A stretch of 64,000 nt of DNA from Candidatus Multivorans sp. GTDB taxonomy: Bacteria > Acidobacteriota > Thermoanaerobaculia > Multivoradales > Multivoraceae. Below, one piece after another: positions 1,938-41,230 of the stretch; the stretch's first letter is position 1, and each line of letters begins with the position of its first letter. Made by a program: the position numbers and the translations under genes. The stretch spans positions 2,855,362-2,919,361 of the forward strand of contig OZ242040.1 in NCBI GenBank assembly GCA_965205095.1, written 5' to 3'. Under the pieces are notes generated by a model. That model did no database searches. It was not told the DNA's origin and saw only the letters and a list, made by a program, of their open reading frames with translations.

Positions 1938-1997
1938 ACGGGCTCGCCGCTTCGCGGCGTCGCGCGGATGCCGGCGAGGGCGCCGGCGCACCCGGTG
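1938..1997. repeat. REP-like repeat copy A: hairpin module CGCCGC-ttc-GCGGCG + GATGCCGGCGAGGGCGCCGGCGCACCCGGTG
   Basis: Near-identical to 2733-2793 (copy B). Shares modules with the other copies. Confidence 0.75.
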
Positions 1998-2004
1998 CGG
2001 AGAG

Positions 2005-2706
2005 TCAGCCCGAGTGCGAGGAGGTCGAGGCGGCGATGATGGCGGGCATGACGGCGGCTGCGGCGACGGCGGCTTGCGCGGCCTCGACGGCGTTGGACGT
2101 GGCCTTGCCGATGACGTCTCCCTTGGTGAGGCTCTTGATGCGCTGCTTGCGGGGCCTCAGTTCCCGGCGGCCGAAGGTCGGGTTGAGCAGGCCCACCGCG
2201 TGCGCGAGCGCGGCCAGGACGACCGTCCGGGGCTCGACTTCCCGGTCGTCGCTGAAGATCGCTGTCCGCAGGCGCTCGATGATCTCCCGCTCCGGGCCCG
2301 GGTCGATTTCCGGGAAGACGCGTCGCTTGAAGATGAGGAGGATCTCCTGCTCATCCGCCCGCAGGATTCGCCGGGCGCAGAGCTGTTCCGCAACCCGGTG
2401 GTGGAGCTTCTTCGTGGAGGAGAAGCGCGTGATCCAGGTCTGGATCGAAGCCCGCCGCTTGGCGGACCGGATTCTCTTCAGGCACTCGTTGAGGATGGCG
2501 TCTTCGGTGCGGCGGATCTCGCGGACCTCGACCAGCTTGCGCCAGCGGCGCGACTCGTCGATGCGGATGCGCTCCTGGAGCAGGAGTTCGGCGGCCATCG
2601 CGCCGCCGAGTCCGATGCTCGTGTGGGCGCCGCCCAGGGTGCCCTTCGTGTCGTGCAGGGCGAGGAGCAGCAGTTCTTCGTGGAGGTGCAGGGGGGTGTG
2701 CCGCAT
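2005..2706 (-). CDS. GPP34/GOLPH3-family protein
   Basis: ORF 2005..2706. The N-terminal segment EELLLLALHDTKGTL... matches the bacterial GPP34 family signature. Confidence 0.55.
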   Translation of the reverse strand: MRHTPLHLHEELLLLALHDTKGTLGGAHTSIGLGGAMAAELLLQERIRIDESRRWRKLVEVREIRRTEDAILNECLKRIRSAKRRASIQTWITRFSSTKKLHHRVAEQLCARRILRADEQEILLIFKRRVFPEIDPGPEREIIERLRTAIFSDDREVEPRTVVLAALAHAVGLLNPTFGRRELRPRKQRIKSLTKGDVIGKATSNAVEAAQAAVAAAAVMPAIIAASTSSHSG

Positions 2707-2732
2707 CGTGTTGGGAGGCTAGCAGCGGGCGG

Positions 2733-2793
2733 TACGGGCTCGCCGCTTCGCGGCGTCGCCAAGATGCCGGCCAGAAGGCCGGCGCACCCAGTG
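2733..2793. repeat. REP-like repeat copy B
   Basis: tacgggctcgccgcttcgcggcgtcgc...gatgccggcc...ggccggcgcacccagtg, between the GH15 and GPP34 genes. Confidence 0.75.
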
Positions 2794-2794
2794 A

Positions 2795-4600
2795 TCAGAA
2801 GGCCTCGCTCCAGGGGCGGCTGAGGCGCAGGGCGGAGTTGATCAGGCCGACCATCGAGTAGGTCTGGGGGAAGTTGCCCCAGAGTTCGCCGGTCTCCGGG
2901 TCGAGGTCCTCGGAGAGAAGTCCCACCGGGTTGCGGCGGTCGAGCATCTGCTGGAACAGCTCGCGGGCTTCCTCGCGGCGGCCGAGGGCGTTGATCGCGT
3001 CGATGTACCAGAAGCTGCAGACGGCGAAGGAGGTGGCCGGGGAACCGAAGTCGTCCTCCCGGTAGCGGAAGAAGTGGCTGCCGGAACGCAGCGGCTCGAG
3101 GGACTCGACGGTGGCCGCGAAGCAGGGATCGTCGGCGTCGAGGAAGCCCAGGTCGTGGAGCAGGAGCAGGCTGGCGTCGATACCCTCGCCGTCCAGCGTG
3201 GCGGCGAGGCCGCCGCCTTCGGTCTCGGCGTGCCGGAGGACATGCGAACGGATCGCTTCGGCCTGGTTCGTCCAGTGCCGCTGACGATCGGCCAGGCCGA
3301 GCGCCCTCGCGATGCGCGCCAGGCGGTCGCAGGCGGCCCAGCACATCACGCTCGAGAAGGTGTGGACGGCGCTCCGCTGCCGGAACTCCCAGAGACCGGC
3401 GTCGGGTTGGTCGAACAGGGCCACGGCCTGGTCGCCGAGCTGTTCCAGCCAGCCGAACACGCGCCGGTTGCCGGGCTTGACCAGCCGGCGGTCGAAGAAG
3501 CTCTGGGTGACGGAGAGAATCGCGCTGCCGTAGCTGTCGTTCTGGAGCTGACGCCAGGCGTCGTTTCCGACCCGGACCGGCGGCATGCCGCGGTAGCCCG
3601 GCAGGCCGTCGACTGTGCGCTCGGTGAGTTCCCGCTCGAACTTGATGCCGTAGACCGGCTGCAGAACGCCGCCCTCGGCGGCAGCGGCGAGGTTCGTGAT
3701 GTAGCCGAGGTAGCCCTCCATCGTTCGCGTGGCGCCCAGGCGGTTGAGCGCCTGGACGACGAAGTGGGAGTCCCGCAGCCAGCAGAAACGGTAGTCCCAG
3801 TTGCGGCCGCTGTCCGGCGCTTCGGGGATCGAGGTGGTCATCGCCGCGAGCACGGCCCCGGTCTCCTCGAAACTGCAGAGCTGGAGCGTGATCGCGGCGC
3901 GGATCACCGCCTCCTGCCACTCGAAGGGCACCGCCAGGTGGCGCACGAACTCGCGCCACCAGGTCTCCGTCCGGCTCCGGAACTCGCGCGCCACCGAGTC
4001 GACGGGGTCGGTCAGGCTCTCGTCCGGTCCGAGCAGCAGGGTGAGCGGCTGTTCCAGGACGAAGGAGATCTCGTCGGTGATCAGCGAGACCGGCGCATCG
4101 GTGGTCAACCGAAGCGTCAGGGCGGGTCCGACGTAGCGGATGTGGTTGCTGCCGCGGGTTACTTCGGGGCGGCGCGAACCGTAGTCGAACCGCGGCCGCA
4201 GCCGGATGCGGATGCGCGGCTCGCCGGAGAGCCGCTCGACCGTGCGGACGATCATCGTTGGCCGGAAGGAACGGCCGAACTGCTCGAAGCGAGGCGCGAA
4301 GTCGGTGATCCGGACCGCGGCGCCGTTGCCGTCGCGGAGCGTCGTCACCAGGATCGCGGTGTTCTCCAGGTACTGCTGCTCGCTTTCACGGAACCCTTCG
4401 AGCAGCACGTCGAAGAAGCCGCCGGCCTCGGGGTCGCCGTCCCTGTCGTCCTTGCCGCCGAGGAGGGAATGGAAGACGGGGTCGCCGTCGAAGTGGGGCA
4501 GGCAGGCCCAGCAGATCCGGCCGCGCGGGTCGATCAGGGCACCGAAGCCGCAATTGCCGATCACGCCGCCGTCGAGCGGCCGCGCGTCACCGGTCGTCAT
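2795..4600 (-). CDS. glycoside hydrolase family 15 (glucoamylase/trehalase-like)
   Basis: 601-aa ORF with GH15 hallmarks (IGNCGFGALID... WLRDS... catalytic-domain alpha/alpha toroid motifs). Its ATG overlaps the otsB stop in an ATGA arrangement at 4597-4600. Confidence 0.8.
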   Translation of the reverse strand: MTTGDARPLDGGVIGNCGFGALIDPRGRICWACLPHFDGDPVFHSLLGGKDDRDGDPEAGGFFDVLLEGFRESEQQYLENTAILVTTLRDGNGAAVRITDFAPRFEQFGRSFRPTMIVRTVERLSGEPRIRIRLRPRFDYGSRRPEVTRGSNHIRYVGPALTLRLTTDAPVSLITDEISFVLEQPLTLLLGPDESLTDPVDSVAREFRSRTETWWREFVRHLAVPFEWQEAVIRAAITLQLCSFEETGAVLAAMTTSIPEAPDSGRNWDYRFCWLRDSHFVVQALNRLGATRTMEGYLGYITNLAAAAEGGVLQPVYGIKFERELTERTVDGLPGYRGMPPVRVGNDAWRQLQNDSYGSAILSVTQSFFDRRLVKPGNRRVFGWLEQLGDQAVALFDQPDAGLWEFRQRSAVHTFSSVMCWAACDRLARIARALGLADRQRHWTNQAEAIRSHVLRHAETEGGGLAATLDGEGIDASLLLLHDLGFLDADDPCFAATVESLEPLRSGSHFFRYREDDFGSPATSFAVCSFWYIDAINALGRREEARELFQQMLDRRNPVGLLSEDLDPETGELWGNFPQTYSMVGLINSALRLSRPWSEAF

Positions 4601-5400
4601 GGGCCCGCCAGCCGCTCGCGCAGCGCCTCCAGCCAGCGGTGCAACTCCCGCACACCGCCCAGGCCGTGCCTGGCGACGCTGTCGCGGCTGCCGTCCGGCT
4701 CCAGGCCGACGACGATCGCTGCGCCGCCGCCGCCCTGGGCGGCTTCGAACCCTTCCTCGTCGGTGATGTCGTCGCCGATGAACACGGGCGCTCGTCCGCG
4801 GAAGGGCGCTTCGGCCATGAAGTCCTCGACCACCGTGCGCTTGTTCGGGCGGTGCGGCTTGAGTTCGAGCACCATCTTGCCCTCCTGCACCCGGTAGCCC
4901 GAACCGAGTGCGGCGCGCACCCGCTCCATCGCCTCGCGGGCCGGGGCCTCTGCGTAGGCCGCGCGGCGGTAGTGGAGCGCCAGGGTCGCCGACTTGTCCT
5001 CCAGCAGCGTGCCCGGATGCTCGTCGACGAAGCGCTCCAGGTTCCGCCGCGCCGGTTCGAGCGCGGCCGAGCCGTCGCTCCGGCTGACCGCGCCGGCCGC
5101 CGACCGCCGCTCCAGGCCGTGCAGTCCCGCCGCCGGAAGGGCCAGCGGCGCGAAGAAGCGGTCGAGCACGTCGAGTGACCGGCCGCTGGCGAGCGCGAGC
5201 GCACCGTCGAGGCTCTCGCTGAGGCGGGCCAGCAGGCTGCCGACGCCTTCGTCGACATGGACCGCGTCGGGCGCCTCGGCGATCTCGATCAGGGTGCCGT
5301 CCACGTCCAGGAACAGGGCCCAGGAATCGGGCGGCGGCGCGGCGGAGCCCGTTTCCAGGAGGGCCCAGGCGGTGCGTGGCGGATGCGCTCTCTGCTTCAC
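4597..5400 (-). CDS. otsB: trehalose-6-phosphate phosphatase (HAD superfamily)
   Basis: ORF 4597..5400 with the LFLDVDGTL HAD motif I and OtsB-like length and context. It is divergent from otsA. Confidence 0.75.
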   Translation of the reverse strand: MKQRAHPPRTAWALLETGSAAPPPDSWALFLDVDGTLIEIAEAPDAVHVDEGVGSLLARLSESLDGALALASGRSLDVLDRFFAPLALPAAGLHGLERRSAAGAVSRSDGSAALEPARRNLERFVDEHPGTLLEDKSATLALHYRRAAYAEAPAREAMERVRAALGSGYRVQEGKMVLELKPHRPNKRTVVEDFMAEAPFRGRAPVFIGDDITDEEGFEAAQGGGGAAIVVGLEPDGSRDSVARHGLGGVRELHRWLEALRERLAGP

Positions 5401-5438
5401 ATGCCCCCCGACCGAGATCCCTTACGATACTGAAACCG

Positions 5439-6836
5439 ATGGCCCCTCAGGATCTGCCGGCTGCCCAGCAGTCGGAACTGGTGATTGTCGCCAACACCTT
5501 GCCCGTGCGTCGCGAGGAGGTGGATGGGGAACTGGGCTGGGCGCAAAGTCCCGGCGGCCTCGTCAGCGCCCTGTCGCCGATCGTGCGCGAGGCGGGCGGG
5601 TGCTGGGTGGGCTGGACCGGCGGCGCGGACGACGCGCCCGAGCCGTTCCGGCACGAAGGCATCCTGAACGTCGCGGTTCCGGTGTCGGAGGCGGAGGTCG
5701 CCGGCTCCTACCAGGGCATGTGCAACTCGACCCTGTGGCCGCTCTACCACGACGCGGTGCGGCCGCCCGAGTACCACCGCCACTGGTGGAACCCGTACGT
5801 CGCGGTCAACCGCCGCTTCGCCGAGGAGGCCGCGCGCCGTACCGCGCCCGGCGGCCGGGTGTGGATCCAGGACTACCACCTCCAGCTCGTGCCGCGGATG
5901 CTGCGCGAGCTGCGGCCGGACATCAGCTCCGGCTTCTTCCTGCACATCCCGTTCCCGCCGATCGAACTGTTCCTGCGCCTGCCGTGGCGGCGGGCGGTGC
6001 TGGAGGGACTGCTCGGCGCCGACGTGATCGGCTTCCAGACGCCGGCCGGCGCCTACAACTTCACGCGGCTCGCCGACCGGCTGATCGAGGCGGAGCCCCA
6101 GGGCGAGACGATCCGCTACCAGGGCCGCGACATCCGGGTCGGCGCCTTTCCGATCTCCATCGACACGGACCGCTACGCGAACGCGGCGCTGGCGCCCGAG
6201 ATCCGGGAGCGCGCCGAGCAGCTCCAGCAGCTCCGCCGCGGGCGGAAGATCATCCTCTCCGTCGACCGGCTCGACTACACGAAGGGCATCGACCTGCGGC
6301 TCAAGGCGTTCCTCGAGTGGCTGGGTCGCGAGGACCGATCGATCCGCGACGCGGTGATGGTCCAGGTCGCGGTGCCCAGTCGCGAGCGCATCTCGGAGTA
6401 CCAGATCCTGCGGCGCGACGTGGAGGAACTCGTCGGTCAGATCAACGGCGAGTACGGCGAACTCGGCGTCGTGCCGGTCCAGTACTTCCGGCGCAACCTG
6501 CCGTTCGAGGAACTCATCGCCTTCTACCTCGTCGCCGACGTGATGCTGGTGACGCCCCTCTGCGACGGCATGAACCTGGTGGCCAAGGAGTACGTCGCCA
6601 CGCGGCTCGAAGACGACGGCGTCCTCGTGCTCTCCGAGTTCGCGGGCGCGGCAGCCGAGCTGCCGGACGCCCTGCTGGTCAATCCCCACGACGTGAACGC
6701 GATGGCGGCCACGATTGAACAGGCGATCACCCTCGACCCGGAGGATGGAACGCGGCGGATGAAGGCAATGCGCGAGGTGGTTCGCCGCCACTCCGTCCAC
6801 GAGTGGGCGGCGCAGTTCATCGAGGCCCTGACCTGA
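5439..6836 (+). CDS. otsA: alpha,alpha-trehalose-phosphate synthase (UDP-forming), GT20
   Basis: In-frame ATG at 5439 (MAPQDLPAAQQSELVIVANTLPV...) within ORF 5376..6836. GT20 OtsA signatures are present throughout. The track's 5376 start would overlap otsB, so I rejected it. Confidence 0.85.
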   Translation: MAPQDLPAAQQSELVIVANTLPVRREEVDGELGWAQSPGGLVSALSPIVREAGGCWVGWTGGADDAPEPFRHEGILNVAVPVSEAEVAGSYQGMCNSTLWPLYHDAVRPPEYHRHWWNPYVAVNRRFAEEAARRTAPGGRVWIQDYHLQLVPRMLRELRPDISSGFFLHIPFPPIELFLRLPWRRAVLEGLLGADVIGFQTPAGAYNFTRLADRLIEAEPQGETIRYQGRDIRVGAFPISIDTDRYANAALAPEIRERAEQLQQLRRGRKIILSVDRLDYTKGIDLRLKAFLEWLGREDRSIRDAVMVQVAVPSRERISEYQILRRDVEELVGQINGEYGELGVVPVQYFRRNLPFEELIAFYLVADVMLVTPLCDGMNLVAKEYVATRLEDDGVLVLSEFAGAAAELPDALLVNPHDVNAMAATIEQAITLDPEDGTRRMKAMREVVRRHSVHEWAAQFIEALT

Positions 6837-8074
6837 CGCGGTATGGAACGGCGGGGCGTGCAACCGTGAAGGCCGGGCAGCAGCGCGGAGCACCCCCAGT
6901 CAGTGATGCCGAAGCGGGGTTCGAGGTAGGCGAGGGCTTCGAACGCTTTTCGCAGAAGGACGACATCTTCTGCCGTTCGTTCTGGGACCCCGAGGTGCGG
7001 ACCTCCCGCTCGGACATGTTCTACGAGACGTACCGCACGCCGGAGCTGCGCTGGCGTCCGGTCGACGGGTTCACGCGGCGCGACTACGCGCTACGCAACG
7101 CTTCCTGGCACGTCACCGACCTGTTCGCGGAGCTGCGGGGAGACGCCGACCGTCGCGAGGGCTTCCTCGACCCCTACACGGTGCTCCGGGACGGTCCGGG
7201 TCCGCCGGACGAGAGCGACGAACCGGAGGATGTCCTCGCCGCTCGACTCGCCGCCGATCTGAAGACGGCCGCCCACGCGCTGGGCGCCGACCTGATCGGC
7301 ATTACTGCAAACGACGAGCGCTGGGTGTACACACACGCGTACTCGCGGGAGAACGAGACGGAGAAACCGCAGGAGCTCCCGGGCGAACTCGGGAATGTCG
7401 TCGTCATTGCGCAGGCGATGGACCGGGGTCTGGTGGAGACCGTGCCGTCGGCCCTGAGCGGGACGGCGACAGGGGTCGGTTACAGCAGCGACACGGTGGT
7501 GCTGCTCGCGATCGCCCAGTACATCCTGAACATGGGCTACGCCGCGGTGCCGACGATGAACGACACGGCGCTGGCGATTCCGCTCGCGATCAAGGCGGGG
7601 CTGGGCGAATACGGCCGTCACGGGCTGCTGATCACCAGGGAGTTCGGCCCCAGGGTGCGGCTCGGGAAGATCTTCACCGACATGCCCCTGGCGCACGACC
7701 GTCCGTTGCGCTTCGGGGTGCGCGAGACCTGCGACGTGTGCCGCGCGTGTTCGGATGCCTGCCCGCCGAAGGCCATCGCGATGGACGCACCGGCGGACCG
7801 GATCTACAACATCTCCAACATCCGCGGCGTGAGGAAGTGGACGACGGACGCCGAGAAGTGCTTCCGGTTCTGGTCGAACCAGAACACCGACTGCTCGATC
7901 TGCGTCAGGGTCTGCCCCTACAACCGGGACTACTCCAGGCGCCTCAGCCGGCTCTGGAGGTGGATGGCGGGGACTCGCCTGCGCCGGCTCGCCCTCTGGC
8001 TCGACCGCCGGAGCGGCCGCGGACGGAGGGTTGAGCCCCAGACGTGGTGGGGCCGCGCCCTGCCTGGCTGGTAG
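6803..8074 (+). CDS. reductive dehalogenase / QueG-superfamily iron-sulfur protein (RdhA-like, non-respiratory type)
   Basis: The C-terminus has two ferredoxin-type motifs: CDVCRACSDACP, then C-x12-CSICVRVCPYNR (RdhA/QueG pattern). It also has LITREFGPRVRLGKIFTDMPL, which resembles the conserved RdhA core. There is no Tat signal and no rdhB neighbour. The start is uncertain: an alternative in-frame GTG at 6866 avoids a 34-nt overlap with otsA. Confidence 0.55.
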   Translation: MGGAVHRGPDLTRYGTAGRATVKAGQQRGAPPVSDAEAGFEVGEGFERFSQKDDIFCRSFWDPEVRTSRSDMFYETYRTPELRWRPVDGFTRRDYALRNASWHVTDLFAELRGDADRREGFLDPYTVLRDGPGPPDESDEPEDVLAARLAADLKTAAHALGADLIGITANDERWVYTHAYSRENETEKPQELPGELGNVVVIAQAMDRGLVETVPSALSGTATGVGYSSDTVVLLAIAQYILNMGYAAVPTMNDTALAIPLAIKAGLGEYGRHGLLITREFGPRVRLGKIFTDMPLAHDRPLRFGVRETCDVCRACSDACPPKAIAMDAPADRIYNISNIRGVRKWTTDAEKCFRFWSNQNTDCSICVRVCPYNRDYSRRLSRLWRWMAGTRLRRLALWLDRRSGRGRRVEPQTWWGRALPGW

Positions 8075-8168
8075 GCTTGAACGTAGCGTCCGGCCGCCGA
8101 GCGCAGGAGAACAGGAGGAAAGGCCGAACGGAATAGCGACTCTGCCCGTCCCGTTCGGATCCAATGCC

Positions 8169-9260
8169 ATGTGGATCAAGAAGTACGACCCCGCCCGTTA
8201 CCTCCCCTCCGACTCCGGTGTCGCGCTGCCGAGCAGCGAGCCGACGCCGCGCGACGTCTACATGGACCGGCGCAAGTTCGTGGCCGCGGCCACGGTCGGC
8301 ATCGCCGGCGCGTCGCCCCTGGCCGCCCAATTCCGCCAGCAGGTGCCGGCGCCTCCTCCGGCGCCGCCGATCGAGGACAAGCTGAAGCCGGCCCTCGAGA
8401 GGCCTGATGTGTACGGCGCCGAGCTCAGCGCGCGGCCCAAGCGGAACACGAAGTTCGCGGATCCGCCGGCCAGCATCGGCGGTGAACTGACGCCGCGCGA
8501 GGCGGCGGGCAGCCACAACAACTTCTACGAGTTCTATCCCGGTCGTGGCGGCCCGGTATGGAAGTTCGCCGGCAAGTTCACCGTCGAGCCCTGGAAGGTC
8601 GAGGTCACGGGCCTCTGCGACAACCCGATGACGCTCGATCTCGACGACATCTTCGGCTTCGAGCACGAGGAGCGGCTCTACCACTTCCGCTGCGTCGAGC
8701 GCTGGGCCATGAACGTGCCCTGGAGCGGCTTCCCCCTCAGCAAGCTGATCGAGAAGGCGCAACCGAAGTCGTCAGCCAGGCATGTCCGTTTCTTCACTGC
8801 TCTCAAGCGGGACCAGATGCCGGGCGTCAGGGAGGCCCACTGGTACCAGTGGCCCTACTTCGAAGCTCTCCGCATGGATGAGGCGATGAACGAGCTGGCC
8901 TTTGTCGCCACCGGCATCTACGGCGAGCCGCTGGTCAAGCAACACGGTGCGCCGCTGCGGCTCGCGATCCCGTGGAAGTACGGCTACAAGAGCGCGAAGT
9001 CGATCGTGAAGATCGAGTTCGTGGCCGAGGAGCCGAAGATCTTCTGGCAGATTCAGCCGCACGAGTACGGCTACCTCTCCAACGTGAACCCGAACATTCC
9101 GCATCCACGCTGGAGCCAGGCGACCTCGCACTGGCTGCACAACAGCCAGCCGTTCGAGACACCGATCTTCAACGGCTACGGCGAGTACGTCTCGAAGCTC
9201 TATCCCGAGGAGCCGACCACGATGCAGCGCGCGCTGCGCCAGGGTCAGGTCGCCCGGTAG
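8169..9260 (+). CDS. msrP: protein-methionine-sulfoxide reductase catalytic subunit MsrP (YedY, molybdopterin)
   Basis: In-frame ATG at 8169 inside ORF 8031..9260. The N-terminal leader is followed by the Tat motif MDRRKFVAAATVG. Conserved NNFYEF, RCVE-WAMNVPW-G and PWKYGYKS-K blocks match E. coli YedY throughout. Confidence 0.85.
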   Translation: MWIKKYDPARYLPSDSGVALPSSEPTPRDVYMDRRKFVAAATVGIAGASPLAAQFRQQVPAPPPAPPIEDKLKPALERPDVYGAELSARPKRNTKFADPPASIGGELTPREAAGSHNNFYEFYPGRGGPVWKFAGKFTVEPWKVEVTGLCDNPMTLDLDDIFGFEHEERLYHFRCVERWAMNVPWSGFPLSKLIEKAQPKSSARHVRFFTALKRDQMPGVREAHWYQWPYFEALRMDEAMNELAFVATGIYGEPLVKQHGAPLRLAIPWKYGYKSAKSIVKIEFVAEEPKIFWQIQPHEYGYLSNVNPNIPHPRWSQATSHWLHNSQPFETPIFNGYGEYVSKLYPEEPTTMQRALRQGQVAR

Positions 9261-9300
9261 GGCGCTAGACGGAGAACACGGCCGGTTCGTATCTGTAGTC

Positions 9301-31217: not shown

Positions 31218-31230
31218 TCGGCTCCCGTGG

Positions 31231-33699: not shown

Positions 33700-33751
33700 C
33701 TGAACTCCCTTCGATCAGTGTACCGGCCGAAGCGCCAATAGACTCGCGCGC

Positions 33752-34777
33752 ATGGCGAAGCGCGTTCTGGTCACCGGCGGAGCCGGCTTTATCGGCAGTC
33801 ACACCTGCGTCGAGCTGCTCGCTTCCGGTTGGGACGTGACCGTCATCGACGATCTCTCGAACAGTTCGCCCGAGGCGTTGCGCCGGGTACAGGAACTGGC
33901 GGGGCGGGACCTGCGTTTCGTCGAAGGAGACGTGCTCGACGAGGCTGCGCTCGAGCGAGCGTTCGGCGACGGCGGCTGTGCGGCGGTCATCCACTTCGCC
34001 GCGAAGAAGGCGGTGGGCGAGTCCTGCGCCGACCCGCTTGGCTACTACCGTACGAACGTGGCGGGCACCATCAGTCTGCTGAGGGCGATGCGCCGGCACG
34101 ACGTGCGCCGGCTGGTCTTCTCGTCGTCCGCGACGGTCTACGGCGATCCGGGGCCGGGCGCCTGCCCGCTGGCCGAGAGCGCGCCGCTCAGGCCCTCCAA
34201 TCCCTACGGCCAGACGAAGCTCTGCGTCGAGCGCATGCTGCGAGATGTGGCCGCTTCGGAGGAGGACTGGCGGATCCTCTCGCTGCGCTACTTCAACCCC
34301 GCCGGGGCTCACCCGAGCGGCCGGATCGGCGAGGACCCACGGGGCCTTCCAGAGAACCTGCTGCCGAGCGCGATGCAGGCCGCGGTTGGAACGTTGCGCG
34401 AGCTTCGCGTGTTCGGGACGGACTATCCGACCCGGGACGGCACGGCGATCCGGGACTATCTCCATGTGGTGGACGTCGCGACCGGGCATCTGCGGGCGCT
34501 GGACCGCCTGCCTGCGGTCAACGGCTGCTCCGAGTACAACCTGGGCACCGGCTGCGGGGTCACGGTGTTCGAGGTGCTCGAGGCGGTGAAGCGGGCCAGC
34601 GGCCGGGAAGTACCGACCGTGCTCGAAGGGCGGCGGCAGGGCGACGCGACGGAGGTATGGGCGGATCCGTCGCTCGCGGGCCGCGACCTTGACTGGACGG
34701 CGGAGCGCGGCCTGGACGACATCTGCGCCGACGCCTGGCGCTGGCAGAACGCGAACCCCGAGGGGTACGGAAGTTGA
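33752..34777 (+). CDS. galE: UDP-glucose 4-epimerase
   Basis: VLVTGGAGFIGSH Rossmann motif, YxxxK catalytic motif and SDR-extended family blocks. Confidence 0.85.
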   Translation: MAKRVLVTGGAGFIGSHTCVELLASGWDVTVIDDLSNSSPEALRRVQELAGRDLRFVEGDVLDEAALERAFGDGGCAAVIHFAAKKAVGESCADPLGYYRTNVAGTISLLRAMRRHDVRRLVFSSSATVYGDPGPGACPLAESAPLRPSNPYGQTKLCVERMLRDVAASEEDWRILSLRYFNPAGAHPSGRIGEDPRGLPENLLPSAMQAAVGTLRELRVFGTDYPTRDGTAIRDYLHVVDVATGHLRALDRLPAVNGCSEYNLGTGCGVTVFEVLEAVKRASGREVPTVLEGRRQGDATEVWADPSLAGRDLDWTAERGLDDICADAWRWQNANPEGYGS

Positions 34778-35436
34778 GCGGAGACGGCAGGCCGAGCGCG
34801 GGAGATGCGCCGCTCGAGGTGTTCGTCTACTACGACTTCGCCTCCAGCCTGAGCTATGTGGCGCACCGGGTCCTGGCCCGGGTCGACGAGGCGCTAGCGG
34901 CGGAGCGCGTCGACCTGCGGTGGAAGGCGATCGACCTGACCGGCGTGGGGAACTTCCAGCGCGGCCGGCTTCTTGACCCGGCACGGCGGCAGAGCCTGCT
35001 GAGGGTGGCTGCGGCGCTGGACGTGAACTTCGACCCACCCGCGCGCTGGCCCGACTCGCGCCTGGCCGGCGAGGTAGCGGTGGTCCTGGACGAGCGCATC
35101 GACCGCGGACTCGACCCGGCGATCGAACGGGAATGGCGGGAGGCGGTGTTCGCGGCCTGTTACGAGCGCGCCGTCGAGGTCGAGGATCTGCTGCGGGACT
35201 TCGAGCGCCGTGTTCCCTTCCCGCTCGGATCGGCCGACGATCTTGCCGCCGGCCGCCGGCTGGCCGAGGTCACGCGGAACGCGGTGGCGGCCGGGGTCGA
35301 GGGCGTGCCGACCCTGATGTTCGACGTCTTCCCTCTGTGCGGCATCCACGACGAGGAGACGATGCTGGGGATGATCCGGCGCTATGCCCGGCGACGCCGT
35401 CGGCTGGAGGCGGATGCCGCAGCCGGGGTCAATTGA
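34774..35436 (+). CDS. DsbA-like thioredoxin-fold protein lacking the CxxC motif (kappa-GST / HCCA-isomerase family)
   Basis: FVYYDFASSLSY occupies the position of DF-CPWC-Y. GVPTLMFD is the cis-Pro loop region. Its start overlaps the galE stop (ATGA). Confidence 0.5.
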   Translation: MSGDGRPSAGDAPLEVFVYYDFASSLSYVAHRVLARVDEALAAERVDLRWKAIDLTGVGNFQRGRLLDPARRQSLLRVAAALDVNFDPPARWPDSRLAGEVAVVLDERIDRGLDPAIEREWREAVFAACYERAVEVEDLLRDFERRVPFPLGSADDLAAGRRLAEVTRNAVAAGVEGVPTLMFDVFPLCGIHDEETMLGMIRRYARRRRRLEADAAAGVN

Positions 35437-37160
35437 TGCGTCTCCTCGCTTTGTCCGCGACCGCAGCCGCGATCCTCGGTTGCGCGGTGGAGGACGGCGC
35501 TTCGGAGCCGCCGGCTGCGCCGTCGGCGGACGTCGCGGCCGCGGGAGGTGTGCGATTCGTCGACGTGACCGCCGAGACCGGCCTCGACTTCGTTCACGCG
35601 ACGGACTCCGCCGGGGCCTTTCCGATGCCGGCGATCATGGGCGGCGGCGTCGCGGCGTTCGATGCGGACGGCGACGGTCTGCTCGACCTCTACTTCCCGA
35701 ACGCGGGCAGCGAGATCGCCGGCGAGGCGGGGCGCAACCGCTTCTACCTGCAGCGGCCGCGCGGCCGTTTCGTCGACGCGACGGCGGGGTCGGGTCTGGA
35801 CAATCCCGGCTACGGCATGGGCGCGGCCGTCGGGGACATCGACAACGACGGCGACTTCGATCTCTACGTGACGAACTTCGGGCCCGATGTGCTCTACCGC
35901 AACGAAGGCGGCGGCCGCTTCGTCGACGTGACGGAGGACTTCGGTGTTGTGACGCCCGGCTGGTCGACCTCGGCCGTGCTCTTCGACGCGGATCTCGACG
36001 GCTGGCTGGACCTCTACGTCGCTCGCTACGTTCAGTGGAACGAGGCCCGCGAGTGCCAGGTCCAGGGCGGTCGGGTCGACTACTGCGGTCCGCAGCAGTT
36101 CGAGGGCGAGGCGGACGTCTTCTACCGGAACGAGGGCGGCCGGCGCTTCGTCGATCGCAGCCGGGATGCGGGCGTTTCGCTGATCGAGGACGCGGGCCTG
36201 GGCGTCGTTGCCGCCGACCTCGACGAGGACGGACTGCCCGACGTCTACGTCGCCAACGACGCCGACCCGAACCAGCTCTGGATCAACCGTGGCGGCGGCG
36301 TGTTCGAGGACGACGCGGTGCTGCTCGGTGCCGCCTACAATCGGTTTGGTGTAGGCGAGGCGGGTATGGGCATAGCACTGGGTGACATCGACGGCGACGG
36401 AGACGTGGACCTGTTCCTGAGTCACCTGATCGAGGAGACGAACACGCTGTACGTGAACCTGGGTGGAACACCGGGGGCGGCGGCCGGCTTCGAGGACCGG
36501 GCCGCCGAAGCCGGCCTGGCGGCGCCCAGCACGCCGTACACCGGCTTCGGAACCGCCTTCTTCGACGCCGACAACGACGGCGACCTGGACCTCGCCGTGG
36601 TCAACGGCGCGGTCAAGCAACGCCCGGAGACGCTCTCCGACCGTGACGACTGGTTCTGGCGCGGCTACGCCGAGCCCAACCTGCTGATGCTCGGTGATGG
36701 GGCCGGCGCCTTCGCCGATGCCAGCGGCGCTTCGGCCGACTTCGGGACGGCGCTCGACGTAAGCCGCAGCCTGGTTCCCTTCGACCTGGAGGGCGACGGC
36801 GATCTGGACCTGCTGGTCAGCAATCTGGAGGGGCCGGCGCGCGTCTATCGCAACGAGACGATCACGGAGACCGCGGCGGCCGCAGGGGGCTGGGTGGGGC
36901 TGCGTGTCGTCGACCCGGAACTGCGCCGCACGGCCCTGGGTGCCTCGGTCACTGCGTGGATCGACGGCCGGCCGGTTCGCCGCCTCGTGCTGCCGCTCGG
37001 CGGCTACCTGACCGGAGGCGAGGCGCCGCTCCACATCGGCCTTGGGGACGCCAACAACGTCGAGCGCTTCGAGGTGACCTGGCCGGGCGGCGCGGTCGAG
37101 GAGTTCGACGGCGCGGCAAGCGGTAGCGAAGTGACGCTCCTGCGCGGAGAAGGCCGATGA
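35436..37160 (+). CDS. CRTAC1-family (ASPIC/UnbV + FG-GAP repeat) lipoprotein
   Basis: In-frame ATG at 35436 (MRLLALSATAAAILGCAVEDG, a lipobox). It has repeated FG-GAP/VCBS D-x-D-G-D motifs and the UnbV_ASPIC C-terminus. The upstream part of the track ORF was rejected. Confidence 0.7.
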   Translation: MRLLALSATAAAILGCAVEDGASEPPAAPSADVAAAGGVRFVDVTAETGLDFVHATDSAGAFPMPAIMGGGVAAFDADGDGLLDLYFPNAGSEIAGEAGRNRFYLQRPRGRFVDATAGSGLDNPGYGMGAAVGDIDNDGDFDLYVTNFGPDVLYRNEGGGRFVDVTEDFGVVTPGWSTSAVLFDADLDGWLDLYVARYVQWNEARECQVQGGRVDYCGPQQFEGEADVFYRNEGGRRFVDRSRDAGVSLIEDAGLGVVAADLDEDGLPDVYVANDADPNQLWINRGGGVFEDDAVLLGAAYNRFGVGEAGMGIALGDIDGDGDVDLFLSHLIEETNTLYVNLGGTPGAAAGFEDRAAEAGLAAPSTPYTGFGTAFFDADNDGDLDLAVVNGAVKQRPETLSDRDDWFWRGYAEPNLLMLGDGAGAFADASGASADFGTALDVSRSLVPFDLEGDGDLDLLVSNLEGPARVYRNETITETAAAAGGWVGLRVVDPELRRTALGASVTAWIDGRPVRRLVLPLGGYLTGGEAPLHIGLGDANNVERFEVTWPGGAVEEFDGAASGSEVTLLRGEGR

Positions 37161-38569
37161 GAGCGTTCAGTAGAGCCGAGCCGTCCGTTGGCCGGCGCGT
37201 TTCTCCCGCCGCCTACGGCGGCAGCCGGCGAGGGCGCCGGCGCACCCAGTGGTCGGGCGGCCGCTGCGGCGTCGTCATTGCAGTCCTGGTACTCGTTCCC
37301 GCCGTCACCCAGGCCGCCGAACTCCCCACCCCCGACCTCACCGCCGTCGAACCCCGGGTCCGAGCCGCCATCGAAAAGGAGCTCGCCACCGCCACCCGCG
37401 AACCCGACTCTCCAGCCGTCTGGGGCCGCCTCGCCATGACCCTCCACGCCCACCAGTTCGACGAGGGGGCCGCGGCCGCGTACGCCGAGGCTTCGCGGCT
37501 GGCGCCCGGCGACTTCCGCTGGGTCTATCTGCGAGCGAACGTGGAAGAGGCCCGCGATCCGGCCGCGGCGGCGGCGTTCTACCGCCGGGCCGTCGAACTC
37601 GACCCCAACTACGCGCCGGCCCGCATCCGCCTCGCCTCCGCCCTCGAGAAGATCGGCCTCGCCGCCGACGCGGACGAGCACTACCGGGAAGCCGCGCGTC
37701 TCGAACCCGACAACGCGGTCGCGCACCTCGGCCTCGGCCGCCTCGCTCTCGGGCGCGGCGAAGTCGATCAGGCCATCCGTGATCTCGAACGCGCCTACGA
37801 TTTGAGTTCCGATACGCAGGCCGTCGTCGCCATGCTGTCGCGCGCCCGGCACCGGGCAGGCGACCGCGACGGGGCGAGGCGTCTCGCCCAGGCGGCGCGG
37901 GACCTGCCGCCGCTGCTCCACCAGCGCGACCCGCGCCGCGCCCAGGTCGACCTGCTGGCCGTGGACTCGGAGAGCTTTCTGCGCCGGAGCAAGACCTACC
38001 GGGAGACGGGGCAGTTGCAGGCTTCCCTCGGGGAACTACGGCGGCTGATCGAACTGGAACCCGGGAACGCCCAGGCGCACTTCGCCGCGGCCGGCGTTCA
38101 CGACCGGATGAACCGGCCGAGGGAGGCCGCCGCGGCCGCGCGCCGCGCTCTCGAACTCGACCCCGATCTGGCGGGCGGGCGAGCGGTGCTGGCTGGCGCT
38201 TTGTTCAAGCTCGGGCAGTTCGGGGAGGCGGCCGCCGAGGCCGAGCGGGTCCTTGCCGAAGATCCGGACGATGTCCACATGCTGCTCGTCACGACCATGC
38301 TGGCGATGCGGGAGAACGACGTGGCGCGGGCTCTCGAGCGGCTGGACCGGGCGGCCGCTGCCGGCGTCGCGGACAACCTGATGCGGGATCTGATGGTTCA
38401 GCTCCAGCTCGAGCTGGCCGACGCTCTGGGAGGTGCGGGCTTCTACGACGACGCGGCGCGCCGGATCGAGCAGGTGATCGAAGCGCTGGAGCAGGGCGGG
38501 GCCAGCGAAAGCGAGTTGCGGCTTCACCAGCGCCGGCTTGCGCAGTACCGGGAAAGGGCGCGCGGATGA
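37157..38569 (+). CDS. TPR-repeat protein (typical partner of CRTAC1-family gene)
   Basis: Multiple TPR units. The N-terminal 35 codons are a translation of a REP-like repeat copy, followed by a hydrophobic signal-like segment. ATGA overlap with the upstream gene. Confidence 0.6.
   Translation: MRAFSRAEPSVGRRVSPAAYGGSRRGRRRTQWSGGRCGVVIAVLVLVPAVTQAAELPTPDLTAVEPRVRAAIEKELATATREPDSPAVWGRLAMTLHAHQFDEGAAAAYAEASRLAPGDFRWVYLRANVEEARDPAAAAAFYRRAVELDPNYAPARIRLASALEKIGLAADADEHYREAARLEPDNAVAHLGLGRLALGRGEVDQAIRDLERAYDLSSDTQAVVAMLSRARHRAGDRDGARRLAQAARDLPPLLHQRDPRRAQVDLLAVDSESFLRRSKTYRETGQLQASLGELRRLIELEPGNAQAHFAAAGVHDRMNRPREAAAAARRALELDPDLAGGRAVLAGALFKLGQFGEAAAEAERVLAEDPDDVHMLLVTTMLAMRENDVARALERLDRAAAAGVADNLMRDLMVQLQLELADALGGAGFYDDAARRIEQVIEALEQGGASESELRLHQRRLAQYRERARG
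37206..37252. repeat. REP-like repeat copy E inside the 5' end of the TPR gene
   Basis: cgccgcctacggcggc (perfect hairpin) + gccggcgagggcgccggcgcacccagtgg. Confidence 0.7.
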
Positions 38570-40056
38570 GCGACGCGGAACACGGGACCGACGCGCCGGT
38601 ACGCGTACGGGTGGCGCCGTCGCCGACCGGCGACCCCCACGTCGGCACCGCCTACCAGGCACTGGTCAACCTGGCCTTCGCGCGCAGCCGCGGCGGCGTC
38701 TTCGTGCTGCGGATCGAGGACACGGACCGCGCCCGTTCGAGCCGCGCGTCAGAGGCCGCGATCCTCGACGCCCTGCGCTGGCTGGGTCTGAATTGGGACG
38801 AGGGGCCCTACCGCCAGAGCGAGCGGCTGGACCTCTACCGCTCGGAGGTCGACCGGCTGCTCGCCGCGGGCAGCGCCTACCGCTGCTTCTGCACGCGGGA
38901 GCGGCTCGACGAGATGCGCCGGGAGAACCGGGCAGAGCAGCGCTTCCCGGGCTACGACCGCCGCTGCCGGAGCCTGTCGTCTGCCGAGTCCGAGCGCCGG
39001 GCGGCGGCCGGGGAACCACACACGGTCCGTCTGGCGATGCCCACCGAGGGCGAATGCGTCATGCAGGACCTCCTGCGCGGCGAGATCCGGCGCGAGTGGG
39101 AGCTGATCGACGACCAGGTCATCCTGAAGGCCGACGGCTATCCCACCTACCACCTGGCCTGCACCGTCGACGACCACGCGATGGCGATCAGCCACGTGAT
39201 CCGGGGGGAGGAGTGGATCAACTCCCTGCCGAAGCACCTGCGGCTCTACGAAGCGCTGGGCTACGAGCCGCCGACCTTCTGCCACCTGCCGCTCCTGCGC
39301 AACAACGACGCGAACCGCTCCAAGCTCTCGAAGCGCCGCAATCCGACCTCGATCACCTGGTTCCGGGATGCCGGCTTCCTGCCCGAGGCGCTGCTGAACT
39401 TCCTGGGGCTCATGGTGTCCAGCCGGTCGGAGGGCGAAGAGAAGTTCAGCTTCGAGGAGCTCGCCAAGGCCTTCCGGTTCGAGGACATCTCGCTCGGAGG
39501 CCCCGTCTTCGACCTCGACAAGCTGCGCTGGCTCAACGCCCGCTACCTGCGCGAGGACTACGACGCGGTCGGGCTTGCCGGTCTCGTCCGCGACTGGTCG
39601 ATGGGGTCGGAGCGGCTCGCCGCCATCGCCGCTCTAGCCCAGCCGCGCCTCGAGACCCTGGGCGACTGGGGGCGGCTGACGAGCTTCCTGTTCGTCGATG
39701 CGCCCGCCGTCGAGCGTGAGAAGCTGGCCGTCAAGGGTCTGGAAGAGGCACAGGTGGCGGAAGCGCTTCAGTTCATGCTGTGGACGCTGGAACGCGAGCA
39801 GACCTTCACCGCCGAGGTCGTCCAGGGCCACTTCCGGCGCCTGTCCGAAGCGTTGGACGTCAGCCTGCGCAACCTGACCCGGCCCTTCTACGTCGCCATG
39901 TCCGGCGAGACCGCCTCGCTGCCGCTGTTCCAGTCGATGGAGATCCTCGGACCCGACCTGGTGCGAGCCCGCATCCGCCGCGCCATCGAAGCGCTGGGCG
40001 GCATCTCCGGCAAGCGGATGAAGAAGCTGCAGAAGCGCTTCGAAGAGTTGGCCTGA
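38566..40056 (+). CDS. gltX: glutamate--tRNA ligase
   Basis: HIGH-type motif (PHVGTA) and KLSKR (the KMSKS motif). It covers the full length of class I GluRS. Confidence 0.9.
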   Translation: MSDAEHGTDAPVRVRVAPSPTGDPHVGTAYQALVNLAFARSRGGVFVLRIEDTDRARSSRASEAAILDALRWLGLNWDEGPYRQSERLDLYRSEVDRLLAAGSAYRCFCTRERLDEMRRENRAEQRFPGYDRRCRSLSSAESERRAAAGEPHTVRLAMPTEGECVMQDLLRGEIRREWELIDDQVILKADGYPTYHLACTVDDHAMAISHVIRGEEWINSLPKHLRLYEALGYEPPTFCHLPLLRNNDANRSKLSKRRNPTSITWFRDAGFLPEALLNFLGLMVSSRSEGEEKFSFEELAKAFRFEDISLGGPVFDLDKLRWLNARYLREDYDAVGLAGLVRDWSMGSERLAAIAALAQPRLETLGDWGRLTSFLFVDAPAVEREKLAVKGLEEAQVAEALQFMLWTLEREQTFTAEVVQGHFRRLSEALDVSLRNLTRPFYVAMSGETASLPLFQSMEILGPDLVRARIRRAIEALGGISGKRMKKLQKRFEELA

Positions 40057-40082
40057 CGCAACCCCGGTGCCGGTGCGCCGTG

Positions 40083-40173
40083 TCGGTGCGCCGGCCTTCT
40101 GGCCGGCTGGGTTCGCGGGTCCTCTGACCCGCTGCCGCCGAAGGCGGCCAGGAGCACGCGCCGCGAAGCGGCG
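40083..40173. repeat. diverged REP-like copy F between convergent gltX and DUF2384 gene (possible bidirectional terminator)
   Basis: ggtgcgccggcc...ccggccttctggccgg palindrome plus the cgccgcgaagcggcg hairpin. Confidence 0.5.
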
Positions 40174-40191
40174 ACCTTCATGCGGCGGGGC

Positions 40192-40554
40192 CTATGCGTA
40201 GCCGCCGGCTGCCAGCCTGTCGAGATAAGCATGGACGTGCTCGGTTCTGCCTTCCCGCAGCAGCATGCACGCCGTTGCTCCACCGAATCCGGACAGCGGC
40301 TCCGAGCGAAACCAGGCGTAGGCCGCAAGCGGCGAGCCAGTTTCGGCCCGAACCTGGTTCAGAATCTCCAGCATCTGGCGGAGACGGCCTTGGGTCTTTC
40401 GAGCCCTGATCCGCGAGTCACGCGAGAGGGCGTCGCGCTCCAATCCAAGTGTGCCGGCGATCTCTGCCCTCGTGGTGCGCAACTCAGCGGCGATGAGCGC
40501 CGGAGACAAGACCTGGTTTTCGACGAGTCTCGCCAGAGCGCCCTTCGTCGTCAT
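40192..40554 (-). CDS. Xre-HTH + DUF2384 (MbcA/ParS-type antitoxin domain) protein
   Basis: ATG at 40552-40554 (MTTKGALARL...). It has an HTH-like LSPALIAAELRTTRAEIAGTLGL. The C-terminal WFRSEPLSGFGGATACMLLREGRTEHVHAYLDRLAAGGYA matches the DUF2384 toxin-binding domain consensus. Confidence 0.55.
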   Translation of the reverse strand: MTTKGALARLVENQVLSPALIAAELRTTRAEIAGTLGLERDALSRDSRIRARKTQGRLRQMLEILNQVRAETGSPLAAYAWFRSEPLSGFGGATACMLLREGRTEHVHAYLDRLAAGGYA

Positions 40555-41093
40555 TGCGGGAACAGGTCGAACACGTCGCCGGGCTTGTAGTCGGGTTTCA
40601 GGTCCCAGTACCACTCGTCGCCCTGCCAGACCCGTTTCGAGCCCAGTTCGCGGAGGCGGCCACGCAGACGATCGAGGGTGTCGGCCAGGCAGTTGTCGGG
40701 GTCGTGGAGGATGCGCGCGTCCTCGGTCATGTCGAGCAGGAGCGGGGTCCCGAGACGCAGCTCCCGGGGGGTCTTGAAGATGGGCGCCAGGCGGGTGTGG
40801 ATTCCGAGGTCGGCGGCCGTGTCGAACAACGGCTGCAGCCGGCCCGCCATGGTGCGGAACTCCTCGACCCGAGCGATCCGGCCATCCGGCAGATCTTCCG
40901 CCACGAGGAGGAGGTCGATGTCGGAGTCGGCCCTGGGCGTGGCGCGGCCGACGGATCCGTAGACGGCGAGGGCGGCCAATCGGCTTCCGTAGTGCGCCTT
41001 GCAGGCCTTGAGGACGGTGCCAAGGAGGTTGTCGTACTGACTCACCAGTCGCGCGGTCGCGCGGCTCTGCTCGGAGGATCGACGGACGGCCAT
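40551..41093 (-). CDS. nucleotidyltransferase (MNT fold) with C-terminal extension, translationally coupled to the DUF2384 gene
   Basis: ATG at 41091-41093 (MAVRRSSEQ...). VYGSVGRATPRADSDIDLLLV is the GS...DxD motif. Its stop overlaps the downstream start (ATGA at 40551-40554). Confidence 0.55.
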   Translation of the reverse strand: MAVRRSSEQSRATARLVSQYDNLLGTVLKACKAHYGSRLAALAVYGSVGRATPRADSDIDLLLVAEDLPDGRIARVEEFRTMAGRLQPLFDTAADLGIHTRLAPIFKTPRELRLGTPLLLDMTEDARILHDPDNCLADTLDRLRGRLRELGSKRVWQGDEWYWDLKPDYKPGDVFDLFPQ

Positions 41094-41160
41094 GGCTCCC
41101 TGATTGTAGGACGGACAGGCCATCACCGGTCCCGAGCCGGTCCCACAAACCGAGTGCGCC

Positions 41161-41230
41161 GGCATCCCCGCGGACTCAATCCACACTGGGTGCGCCGGCG
41201 CCCCCGCCGGCCTTAGTGGAGTCGCGCGGG
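41161..41230. repeat. REP-like repeat copy G (inverted) between glnS stop and MNT start
   Basis: cactgggtgcgccggcgcccccgccggcc. Confidence 0.65.

Follow-up and report, generated by a model that had tools for sequence, protein, structure and literature searches.

The 64-kb stretch of Candidatus Multivorans sp. DNA analyzed here (contig OZ242040.1; hereafter the window, i.e., the whole stretch of 64,000 nucleotides) contains a set of GC-rich repeats, which are a genuine family of small, hairpin-forming Repetitive Extragenic Palindromic (REP) elements from an uncultured acidobacterial lineage. These repeats are very likely the REP elements of a REP/RAYT system (a REPtron), in which the elements are associated with a REP-Associated Tyrosine Transposase (RAYT), and which in this case belongs to a lineage of the Thermoanaerobaculia (Acidobacteriota). 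The evidence comes from the structure of the repeat core, the covariation of its stem across genomes, and the arrangement of the copies around the RAYT genes.

Structure and covariation of the repeat core

The repeat core has 28 nt, and is composed of a 7-bp hairpin with a 4-nt loop (GCCGGCG-RGGG-CGCCGGC), which is followed by an unpaired 10-nt tail, GCACCCAGTG; on the opposite strand, the core reads 5'-CACTGGGTGC and then the hairpin. Seven canonical cores and one degenerate cluster are present in the window, the GC content of which is approximately 70% across its length, and fold prediction returned the core hairpin in each of the copies. The pattern GATGCCGGCG(A/G)GGGCGCCGGCGCACCCAGTG, which a first-pass annotation of this DNA had designated module Y, has six matches in the window with up to three mismatches, versus 0.00 in 100 dinucleotide-preserving shuffles, while the 13-nt end, GGCGCACCCAGTG, has seven matches with up to one mismatch, versus 0.27 expected. 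The REP-like family of miniature repeats proposed in that annotation is, then, real, dispersed, and mostly extragenic, with six to seven copies in the window against an expectation of 0-0.27. Canonical cores were found at six of the sites that it listed, although one site (25728-25800) had been overlooked and another (40083-40173) proved to be a degenerate cluster of four hairpins.

The core usually has one to three other GC hairpins on its 5' side, which results in mosaics resembling the Bacterial Interspersed Mosaic Elements (BIMEs). A single type of hairpin, module X, had been proposed for this part of the repeat, whereas several different ones were found, such as CGCCGC-TTC-GCGGCG (at 1945, 2741, 11536, and 40159), GCCGCC-nnn-GGCGGC (at 25757, 37208, and 40134), GCCGGCC-TGAC-GGCCGGC, and GCGAGGC-TGAC-GCCCCGC, with the TGAC loop recurring, for example, at 25783-25800 and 41226-41243. 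Given that 6-bp GC hairpins are common in the window (133, mainly within genes), module X is meaningful only through its position beside module Y. Some of the upstream hairpins have CGTC at the end of the stem (GCGGCGTCGC in copies 1 and 2) and others do not, and CGTC is absent from the core itself. The upstream hairpin of copy 4 matches the coding sequence of hemA (21384-21402) over 17 nt, a similarity that was dropped as compatible with chance in GC-rich DNA. The scans of the window against Rfam (at the gathering threshold) and for tRNAs and tmRNAs produced no matches, so the repeats are neither a known RNA family nor derived from tRNAs.

The family extends beyond the window, as at least 86 genome stretches contain the exact 28-mer, and the duplication of a gene fragment does not account for the repeats. 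Many of these matches sit on short contigs of one Metagenome-Assembled Genome (MAG). In all the DNA that was compared, 356 matches to the tail were recorded, 223 of which have a perfect 7-bp stem before the tail, while the others make up a background peak at 0-4 pairs, and this bimodal distribution is the unbiased part of the evidence on pairing. Six variants of the stem were recognized (GCCGGCG, GCCGACG, GCCGGCC, GCGGGTC, GCGGGCC, and GCGGACC), each with a matching 3' arm. In a set of 26 distinct cores, 97.8% of the cells are paired, versus 78.4% in the shuffles and 27-48% when the partner is slid, and double-sided (compensatory) changes are observed in four of the seven stem pairs; as this set was drawn from sequences that already pair, these percentages describe the family, and are not a blind test. 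Between genomes, the tail stays GCACCCAG while the stem varies through compensatory substitutions, and the alignment of the cores shows little or no variation at GCACCC.G in the tail. The conservation ends one to two bases past ...CAGTG(K), which provides a sharp 3' border, and the 5' side is variable.

The RAYT gene and the other explanations for the repeats

The first-pass annotation had proposed that the repeats be compared with the presence of a RAYT, and the locus L027, as well as eight further RAYT-centred loci, proved to contain a RAYT gene with these repeats on its flanks. L027 is a MAG contig with ten copies of the repeat in 8 kb, in which an Open Reading Frame (ORF) at 7048-7716 encodes a protein with the motifs PNHVHVL and YIWLNPV. 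This protein scores 29.3 bits against the Pfam model Y1_Tnp (cutoff 23), and only 18 bits against the NCBIfam model of IS200 (cutoff 55), while its sole match in the PDB is the E. coli TnpA_REP, 4ER8 (E 4e-4, with low similarity). The alignment with 4ER8 shows the conservation of the HUH motif, the catalytic Tyr115, W94, and R104, and the replacement of Q95 by Met, of E100 by Asp, and of H101 by Arg; in the E. coli protein, the residues W94, Q95, E100, H101, and R104 contact the GTAG guide (PMC6006769). The RAYT motifs are NHVH / WM / YI..NP, preceded by an N-terminal extension of approximately 65 aa with GWHSRGY[HL]PH, and in the comparison with the published subclasses (Table 1 of PMC6006769), no row is matched exactly, the closest being 2.4 and 2.7 (YIxNNP and YI[LR][NQ]NP). 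To judge from its sequence, the L027 protein is a RAYT-type Y1/HUH transposase, in which the HUH and Tyr motifs are intact.

Upstream of the RAYT gene of L027 are a minus-strand copy, a plus-strand copy, and a series of tails in tandem that have no hairpin. The stop codon of the gene falls within a degenerate minus-strand copy, and the same block of a minus copy, a plus copy, and a tail array is found downstream. The hairpin-less tail arrays (6879-6985 and 7940-8000 of L027) are composed of GTGTGGCGTCGCACCCAGTGC alternating with GTGGTGTCACACCCGGTGT, with a period of approximately 20 nt.

Roughly 1,200 homologs of the RAYT were recorded. The eight further loci (L087-L094) were traced by protein identity alone, i.e., independently of the repeat, with L092 and L093 having the same protein, and all eight are crowded with hairpin-plus-tail units. 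The density of the cores is 1.40 per kb in the nine RAYT loci (L027 and L087-L094), versus 0.11 per kb in the window, which is an approximately 13-fold difference. At seven of the nine loci, the nearest plus-strand copy lies 47-170 nt upstream of the start of the gene, while the nearest downstream copy is a minus-strand one, at a position between 5 nt before the end of the gene and 242 nt beyond it, and, given these orientations, the bracketing copies are inverted, with their tails towards the RAYT gene.

The type of stem also differs among the loci, with GCCGGCG being found in L027, L090, and L092, and GCCGACG/CGTCGGC in L091 and L094, while L087-L089 have GCGGGYC or GCGGACC stems with an AGAA loop and a tail ending in ...CAGAG. 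Two of the RAYTs, P0021 and P0023, are mutually closest (72.5%) and go with GCGG[GA][CT]C stems, AGAA loops, and ...CAGAG tails, and the remaining RAYTs accompany GCCG[GA]CG stems and ...CAGTG tails. The neighbourhood of the gene (APH, Oxidored_molyb sulfite-oxidase-like, and cytochrome c genes) is common to L027, L090, L091, and L092, and is rearranged in L094. The occurrence of the same neighbours in several genomes points to a RAYT that is domesticated and vertically inherited, and is not an Insertion Sequence (IS). A tblastn search with the RAYT in the window and the loci L001-L086 (approximately 700 kb of loci) returned no further copy.

In the mechanism proposed for this system, the RAYT would bind the hairpin as single-stranded DNA, would use the bases of the foot (GTGC within CACTGGGTGC) to position the cleavage, and would rejoin the strands in a manner that may give rise to new copies, tandem duplications, and the shuffling of the modules. 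When transcribed, the copies would form stable 3' RNA hairpins, which may stabilise or punctuate the mRNAs, a putative secondary role that is plausible.

A number of points weigh against this reading of the repeats. The L027 protein scores 78.5 bits (E 4e-22) against the NCBIfam model REP_Tyr_transpos, that is, 1.5 bits under the curated cutoff of 80. No RAYT was detected by tblastn in the 64-kb window, and the case for one elsewhere in the same genome is strong but indirect: the protein P0121, which is recorded on a 5,110,295-bp contig, has 100% identity with the product of the window's 629-aa HemC-HemD ORF, and the protein P0251 (222 aa, from the closest RAYT cluster), which is 93.7% identical to the RAYT of L027, is recorded on a 5,110,295-bp contig, so that the window's own genome would carry P0251 on the same 5.11-Mb chromosome. 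The classical 5' GT[AG]G tag is absent, its place being taken by GTGC (GCAC on the strand given above, the invariant columns 19-22), which matches the GTGG variant of the tag at three of its four bases, and atypical REPs without GT[AG]G are already known for some RAYT subclasses (PMC6006769). The copies of the window are all singlets or clusters of the same orientation, and not the inverted doublets of the REPIN form, with inverted pairs being seen in some of the related loci (L015, L036, and L027). Most of the copies are old and inherited, given that many are kept at orthologous sites between species with 84-95% DNA identity. The binding and cleavage by the RAYT, and the mobility of the repeats, are put forward by analogy with the biochemistry of TnpA_REP and of the IS200/IS605 TnpA (PMC6006769). 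The gene context was obtained with a crude codon-usage gene caller, and was checked with Pfam. As for the copy number and the restriction to one clade, the 86 stretches are a minimum, and it is among the matches listed that all belong to the Thermoanaerobaculia, Ca. Multivorans, Holophagales, or Acidobacteriota MAGs.

The position of the copies relative to the genes is the starting point for a different explanation. In the window and L001-L086, 131 of the 156 classifiable cores are intergenic, with 38% of the intergenic cores being located in convergent spacers, which make up 17% of all the spacers, and 11% in divergent spacers, which also make up 17%. The repeats are enriched at the 3' ends of genes. 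The first-pass annotation had placed most of the copies at gene ends or between convergent genes. The copies of the window directly follow stop codons or overlap them, and only one site lies in a convergent spacer, the others being found between co-directional genes or overlapping the ends of ORFs. The repeats might, given this, be RNA-level elements (factor-independent terminators or 3' mRNA-stabilising hairpins) selected at the gene ends, with the transposase being incidental, an unlikely explanation which draws on the copies just past or overlapping stop codons, the enrichment in convergent spacers, the very stable stems, and the near lack of canonical intrinsic terminators. Only four hairpin-plus-T-tract sites were found in 40 kb of the window (1-20000 and 21401-41400), which is below the shuffle means of 7.5 and 6.1, and no sigma-70-like promoter matches were found in the same two segments. 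Canonical E. coli-type signals seem to be rare in this organism and, given the few canonical terminators, other means may end or protect its transcripts.

The repeats do not, however, have the features of canonical terminators, a role that had been suggested for them in the first pass, given that no copy has a T-tract (the U-tract of the transcript) and none was flagged by the terminator scan. The tail is conserved strand-specifically, despite the fact that, in the co-directional spacers, 40 cores are opposite to the transcription and 27 have the same direction, which is no clear orientation bias. The approximately 13-fold enrichment and the inverted bracketing around the RAYT genes are also left unexplained, as is the stem type that tracks the RAYT clade. 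A role at the level of the RNA is nevertheless compatible with a REP/RAYT system, as a secondary, exapted function.

It is quite improbable that the repeats serve as binding sites, recognised through the palindrome GCGCCGGCGC, for a host protein such as gyrase, a nucleoid protein, or a restriction-modification enzyme. This 10-bp palindrome, which was noted within module Y in the first pass, is present in the commonest variant of the core, with several known restriction-site motifs, but is a by-product of that one stem variant. It is lost in the CGTCGGC, GACCCGC, and GGCCCGC variants, which keep both the hairpin and the tail, and selection thus acts on the intrastrand pairing and the tail, rather than on a duplex palindrome.

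Even less probable is an origin of the repeats as Miniature Inverted-repeat Transposable Elements (MITEs), i.e., deletion derivatives of a conventional IS that are mobilised in trans by a DDE transposase through their terminal inverted repeats. This explanation would account for an identical composite of approximately 105 nt which is found at no fewer than five unrelated loci of the MAG jk18x40bins.27 (L003, L004, L013, L043, and L064), and is composed of an outer stem, GCGCGGCA/TGCCGCGC, around a CGCCGC hairpin and the core. On either side, the composite is bounded by CTAG, a possible target duplication. The conserved core, however, is asymmetric (a hairpin and a one-sided tail), with only the 3' border being sharp, CTAG contains a TAG stop on both strands and may just reflect insertion at gene ends, and no transposase other than the Y1 RAYT was found beside the copies in the approximately 700 kb of loci. 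The composite, which has an internal 44-nt duplication in its L064 copy, suggests that a larger unit has spread recently. The flanks shared by several copies of this MAG were also considered as parts of a large repeated element or IS, which was rejected, as there is no similarity beyond the approximately 105 nt. Finally, the chance build-up of GC-rich palindromes, or of a repeated coding motif, in a 70% GC genome is refuted, despite the frequency of 6-bp GC hairpins in coding DNA (the 133 of the window) and the several copies within ORFs, by the zero matches in the shuffles, the exact 28-nt match common to many species, and the intergenic position of most copies, and can be discarded with near certainty.

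The copies of the window, their turnover, and their presence within genes

The coordinates of the copies and of their hairpins are presented in Table 1.

Table 1. REP copies and associated hairpins of the 64-kb window, with the coordinates counted from its first nucleotide.
Feature	Position	Strand	Details
REP copy 1	1937-1997	+	core hairpin GCCGGCG-AGGG-CGCCGGC 1970-1987; tail GCACCCGGTG 1988-1997, one mismatch
REP copy 1, upstream hairpin CGCCGC-TTC-GCGGCG	1945-1959	+	within a 27-nt block identical to copy 2
REP copy 2	2733-2793	+	compensatory stem GCCGGCC-AGAA-GGCCGGC 2766-2783; tail GCACCCAGTG 2784-2793; DNA fold z = -3.6
REP copy 2, upstream 27-nt block	2733-2759	+	same as copy 1
REP copy 3	11493-11552	-	tail 11493-11502; core hairpin 11503-11520; upstream hairpin CGCCGC-TTC-GCGGCG 11536-11550
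REP copy 4	21556-21615	+	upstream hairpin 21556-21581; core 21588-21605; tail 21606-21615
REP copy 5	25728-25800	-	three-hairpin cluster; core GCCGGCG-AGGG-CGCCGGC 25738-25755; tail 25728-25737
REP copy 5, upstream hairpins	25783-25800; 25757-25771	-	GCCGGCC-TGAC-GGCCGGC; GCCGCC-TGC-GGCGGC
REP copy 6	37180-37251	+	core 37224-37241; tail 37242-37251
REP copy 6, upstream hairpins	37208-37222 (second hairpin)	+	decayed GCCG.CC..GGCCGGC, then GCCGCC-TAC-GGCGGC
Degenerate REP cluster	40080-40173	-	four hairpins; z = -3.4
Degenerate cluster, Y-like unit GCCGGCC-AGAA-GGCCGGC	40090-40107	-	decayed tail GCACCGACAC
Degenerate cluster, second REP type GCGGGTC-AGAG-GACCCGC	40115-40132	-	tail GAACCCAG
Degenerate cluster, other hairpins	40134-40148; 40159-40173	-	GCCGCC-TTC-GGCGGC; CGCCGC-TTC-GCGGCG
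REP copy 8	41184-41243	-	tail 41184-41193; core GCCGGCG-GGGG-CGCCGGC 41194-41211; upstream hairpin GCGAGGC-TGAC-GCCCCGC 41226-41243

Between copy 1 and the stop of the gene upstream of it, which has a GPP34 (Golgi phosphoprotein 3) domain (2005-2706, minus strand), there are 7 nt, and the start of a methyltransferase gene (1923) follows 14 nt downstream of the copy. In copy 2, the end of the tail is 1 nt away from the stop codon of a GH15 gene (2795-4600, minus strand). The GPP34-domain gene is found, in this way, between two REPs of the same orientation, copies 1 and 2, which have the same 27-nt block and differ in their core stems. Copy 3 is located between a PspC-domain gene (stop 11464) and an FAD-oxidase gene (start 11591), copy 6 is downstream of an FG-GAP/ASPIC gene (stop 37160), a position that is conserved in the orthologous locus L056, and the degenerate cluster occupies the spacer in which gltX (stop 40056) converges with an NTP_transf_2 gene (stop 40551). 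In copy 8, the loop of the upstream hairpin contains the TGA stop (41234-41236) of the GlnRS gene (41234-42937, minus strand). A small nucleotidyltransferase-domain gene (40551-41126, minus strand), the third in the window, lies between the degenerate cluster and copy 8 (40080-40173 and 41184-41243), which have the same orientation.

Parts of the window have orthologous counterparts in four related loci, with 84-95% DNA identity, and the differences among them provide a view of the turnover of the copies. At the 11.5-kb site, a REP follows the PspC-domain gene in the window, L077, and L085, with two additional modules in L085 and 22 nt fewer in L077. At the 9.3-kb site, L067 has a copy directly past the stop codon and L077 has none, while the window has 314 nt of other sequence. 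This 314-nt convergent spacer (9261-9574) contains a weak 86-aa ORF (9301-9561) with no Pfam match, while the orthologous spacer has 92 nt, with a REP, in L067, and is short and REP-free in L077. At the 1.9-kb site, L017 has the compensatory stem GCGGGCG/CGCCCGC, and tandem duplications with periods of 42-63 nt were found in several loci. There is, then, ongoing local rearrangement and some recent spread alongside the old copies.

The comparison with the close relatives L056 and L077 also revealed two segments which are present in the window and absent from these relatives, one of them (32890-33724) carrying a HEPN-domain gene (33310-33699), and the other (14204-16063), with a lower GC content (64%), an NTP_transf_2 gene (14327-14671) and small unannotated ORFs. 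Both are probable islands of the HEPN/nucleotidyltransferase toxin-antitoxin type.

The risk, pointed out in the first-pass annotation, that the repeats be mistaken for coding sequence is a pertinent one, although the converse also holds. All six reading frames of the core are free of stop codons, and at least one copy, that of the HemC-HemD linker, is very probably translated. Copy 5 lies in frame between HemC (aa 4-295) and HemD (aa 426-612), in the ORF at 24967-26856 (minus strand), where it encodes ...AGLTAGAFSKPPAAAAGEGAGAPS... As the fusion is kept in the clade down to 44% identity, this ORF is a real bifunctional gene. The linker peptides AGEGAGAPS, AGGDAGAPS, and AGQKTRAPS are exact translations of three variants of the core, and the number of core modules in the linker ranges from 0 to 5 per ortholog, with at least one in 45 of the 108 orthologs, and none in the more distant orthologs (606-611 aa). 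A full-length homolog of Peptidase_M2 (the angiotensin-converting-enzyme family; Pfam 737 bits), at 26985-28820 on the plus strand, adjoins this haem biosynthesis cluster.

Two other copies may also have been incorporated into proteins. Copy 4 falls within the last 36 or so codons of the ferrochelatase ORF (21524-22660, minus strand), which encodes 378 aa and has a Pfam domain that extends to aa 342. The end of the protein includes ...TLGAPAPPPA..., i.e., the REP in the reverse frame (...TLGAPAPPPASDVPPRCGV...), and the original stop codon seems to have been displaced by this copy or lost to it. In the case of the TPR-protein ORF, the only in-frame start before the signal-peptide-like VVIAVLVLVPAVTQA is the ATG at 37157, which overlaps the upstream stop as ATGA, and if the ORF starts there, copy 6 would encode the Arg-rich SRRGRRRTQW, an arrangement that is the same in L056.

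A broader proposal can be advanced tentatively, with somewhat less than even confidence, that this is an undescribed REP/RAYT lineage of the Acidobacteriota (Thermoanaerobaculia, Ca. Multivorans), with an enzyme that would read a long non-GTAG tag, CACTGGGTGC, and in which the guide Gln is replaced by Met, and with stop-free REPs that would have been repeatedly absorbed into proteins. The clearest case of absorption is the copy-number-variable array of the HemC-HemD linker, with the C-terminus of the ferrochelatase and the N-terminus of the secreted TPR protein being possible cases. If true, this lineage would provide natural variants of the tag and the enzyme for working out the specificity of the RAYTs, and an example of selfish DNA hairpins that supply peptide linkers. 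The HemC-HemD linker arrays indicate that such elements are tolerated, in variable numbers, inside an essential fused enzyme. In practical terms, the repeats fragment metagenome assemblies and, as they are stop-free in six frames, the calling of ORFs at the gene ends is distorted in this clade.

Comparison with known systems

The REP/RAYT systems are best known from the Proteobacteria. The REP/BIME elements of E. coli, with the RAYT known as TnpA_REP, were reportedly described in 2012 by Ton-Hoang and by Messing, and are summarised in PMC6006769. As in E. coli, the repeats of the present family are short, GC-rich hairpins with a conserved, unpaired foot motif, which are found, singly or in mosaics, in what would be hundreds of extragenic copies, and they flank a Y1/HUH transposase gene that is probably the only one (a REPtron). 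The tag differs, being GTGC inside the conserved 10-nt CACTGGGTGC, rather than the GTAG of E. coli, and the enzyme has Met in the place of Q95, Asp in that of E100, and Arg in that of H101, in addition to the N-terminal extension of approximately 65 aa. The family represents a natural variant of the recognition tag, with matched substitutions in the enzyme and several types of stem that co-vary with it.

The REPIN-RAYT systems of Pseudomonas, which are said to have been described by Bertels and Rainey in 2011 and by Bertels and colleagues in 2017, have a single-copy, vertically inherited RAYT, as would be the case here, and are similar in that the RAYT is syntenically fixed, the REP populations are kept across related species, and the REP sequence and the RAYT clade co-vary. 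In those systems, however, the replicating unit is an inverted REP doublet, whereas the copies of the window are singlets or multi-hairpin mosaics of the same orientation.

Similarities are also found with the right ends of the IS200/IS605 elements (IS608 and ISDra2; PMC6006769), which have a subterminal hairpin, a short conserved 3' stretch, and a sharp boundary approximately 10-11 nt from the stem, and with their Y1 HUH enzyme, which acts on single-stranded DNA, as the RAYT of the present family presumably does. In the present case, by contrast, there is no paired left end enclosing the transposase, the Tyr motif is Y....NP rather than Y...Q, and the gene is syntenic. The score of 18 against the IS200 cutoff of 55, the NP-type Tyr motif, and the fixed synteny are, in fact, at variance with an IS of the IS200/IS605 type.

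The translated copies resemble the Rickettsia Palindromic Elements (RPEs) and the intragenic REPs (PMC3733652), in which palindromic repeats lie in frame within genes and are translated as extra segments. The RPEs, on the other hand, have a CGTC tag and no known transposase, and the present family has a variable linker array of 0-5 modules. In the CGTC-tagged REPs, the palindrome ends in CGTC, and there is no associated transposase (PMC3733652).

Within the same phylum, the TIRYT/TIRtron genes of the Acidobacteria (Di Nocera et al. 2013, PMC3733652) and the members of subclass 2.1 and of class 3 of TnpA_Y1 (Quentin et al. 2018, PMC6006769) are described as having either long flanking Terminal Inverted Repeats (TIRs), some of which have the motif GGGGWSAS, or atypical CnGA-footed structures. 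These are RAYT-like Y1 transposases with inverted flanks, as in the present case, but have few or no dispersed copies, whereas short hairpin REPs are abundant here. In the surveys, the Acidobacteria are represented only by these TIR-flanked TIRYT genes or the atypical CnGA-footed structures (PMC3733652, PMC6006769), and no report of a REP or REPIN in the Thermoanaerobaculia or Ca. Multivorans, nor of this family, was found in the literature. The presence of an abundant family of hairpin-type REPs, with its own RAYT, in the uncultured Thermoanaerobaculia widens the host range of the REP/RAYT systems and, as its structure, its distribution, and its association with the enzyme are those of such systems, the family represents a type of element that was already known, in a group of hosts that is new for it.

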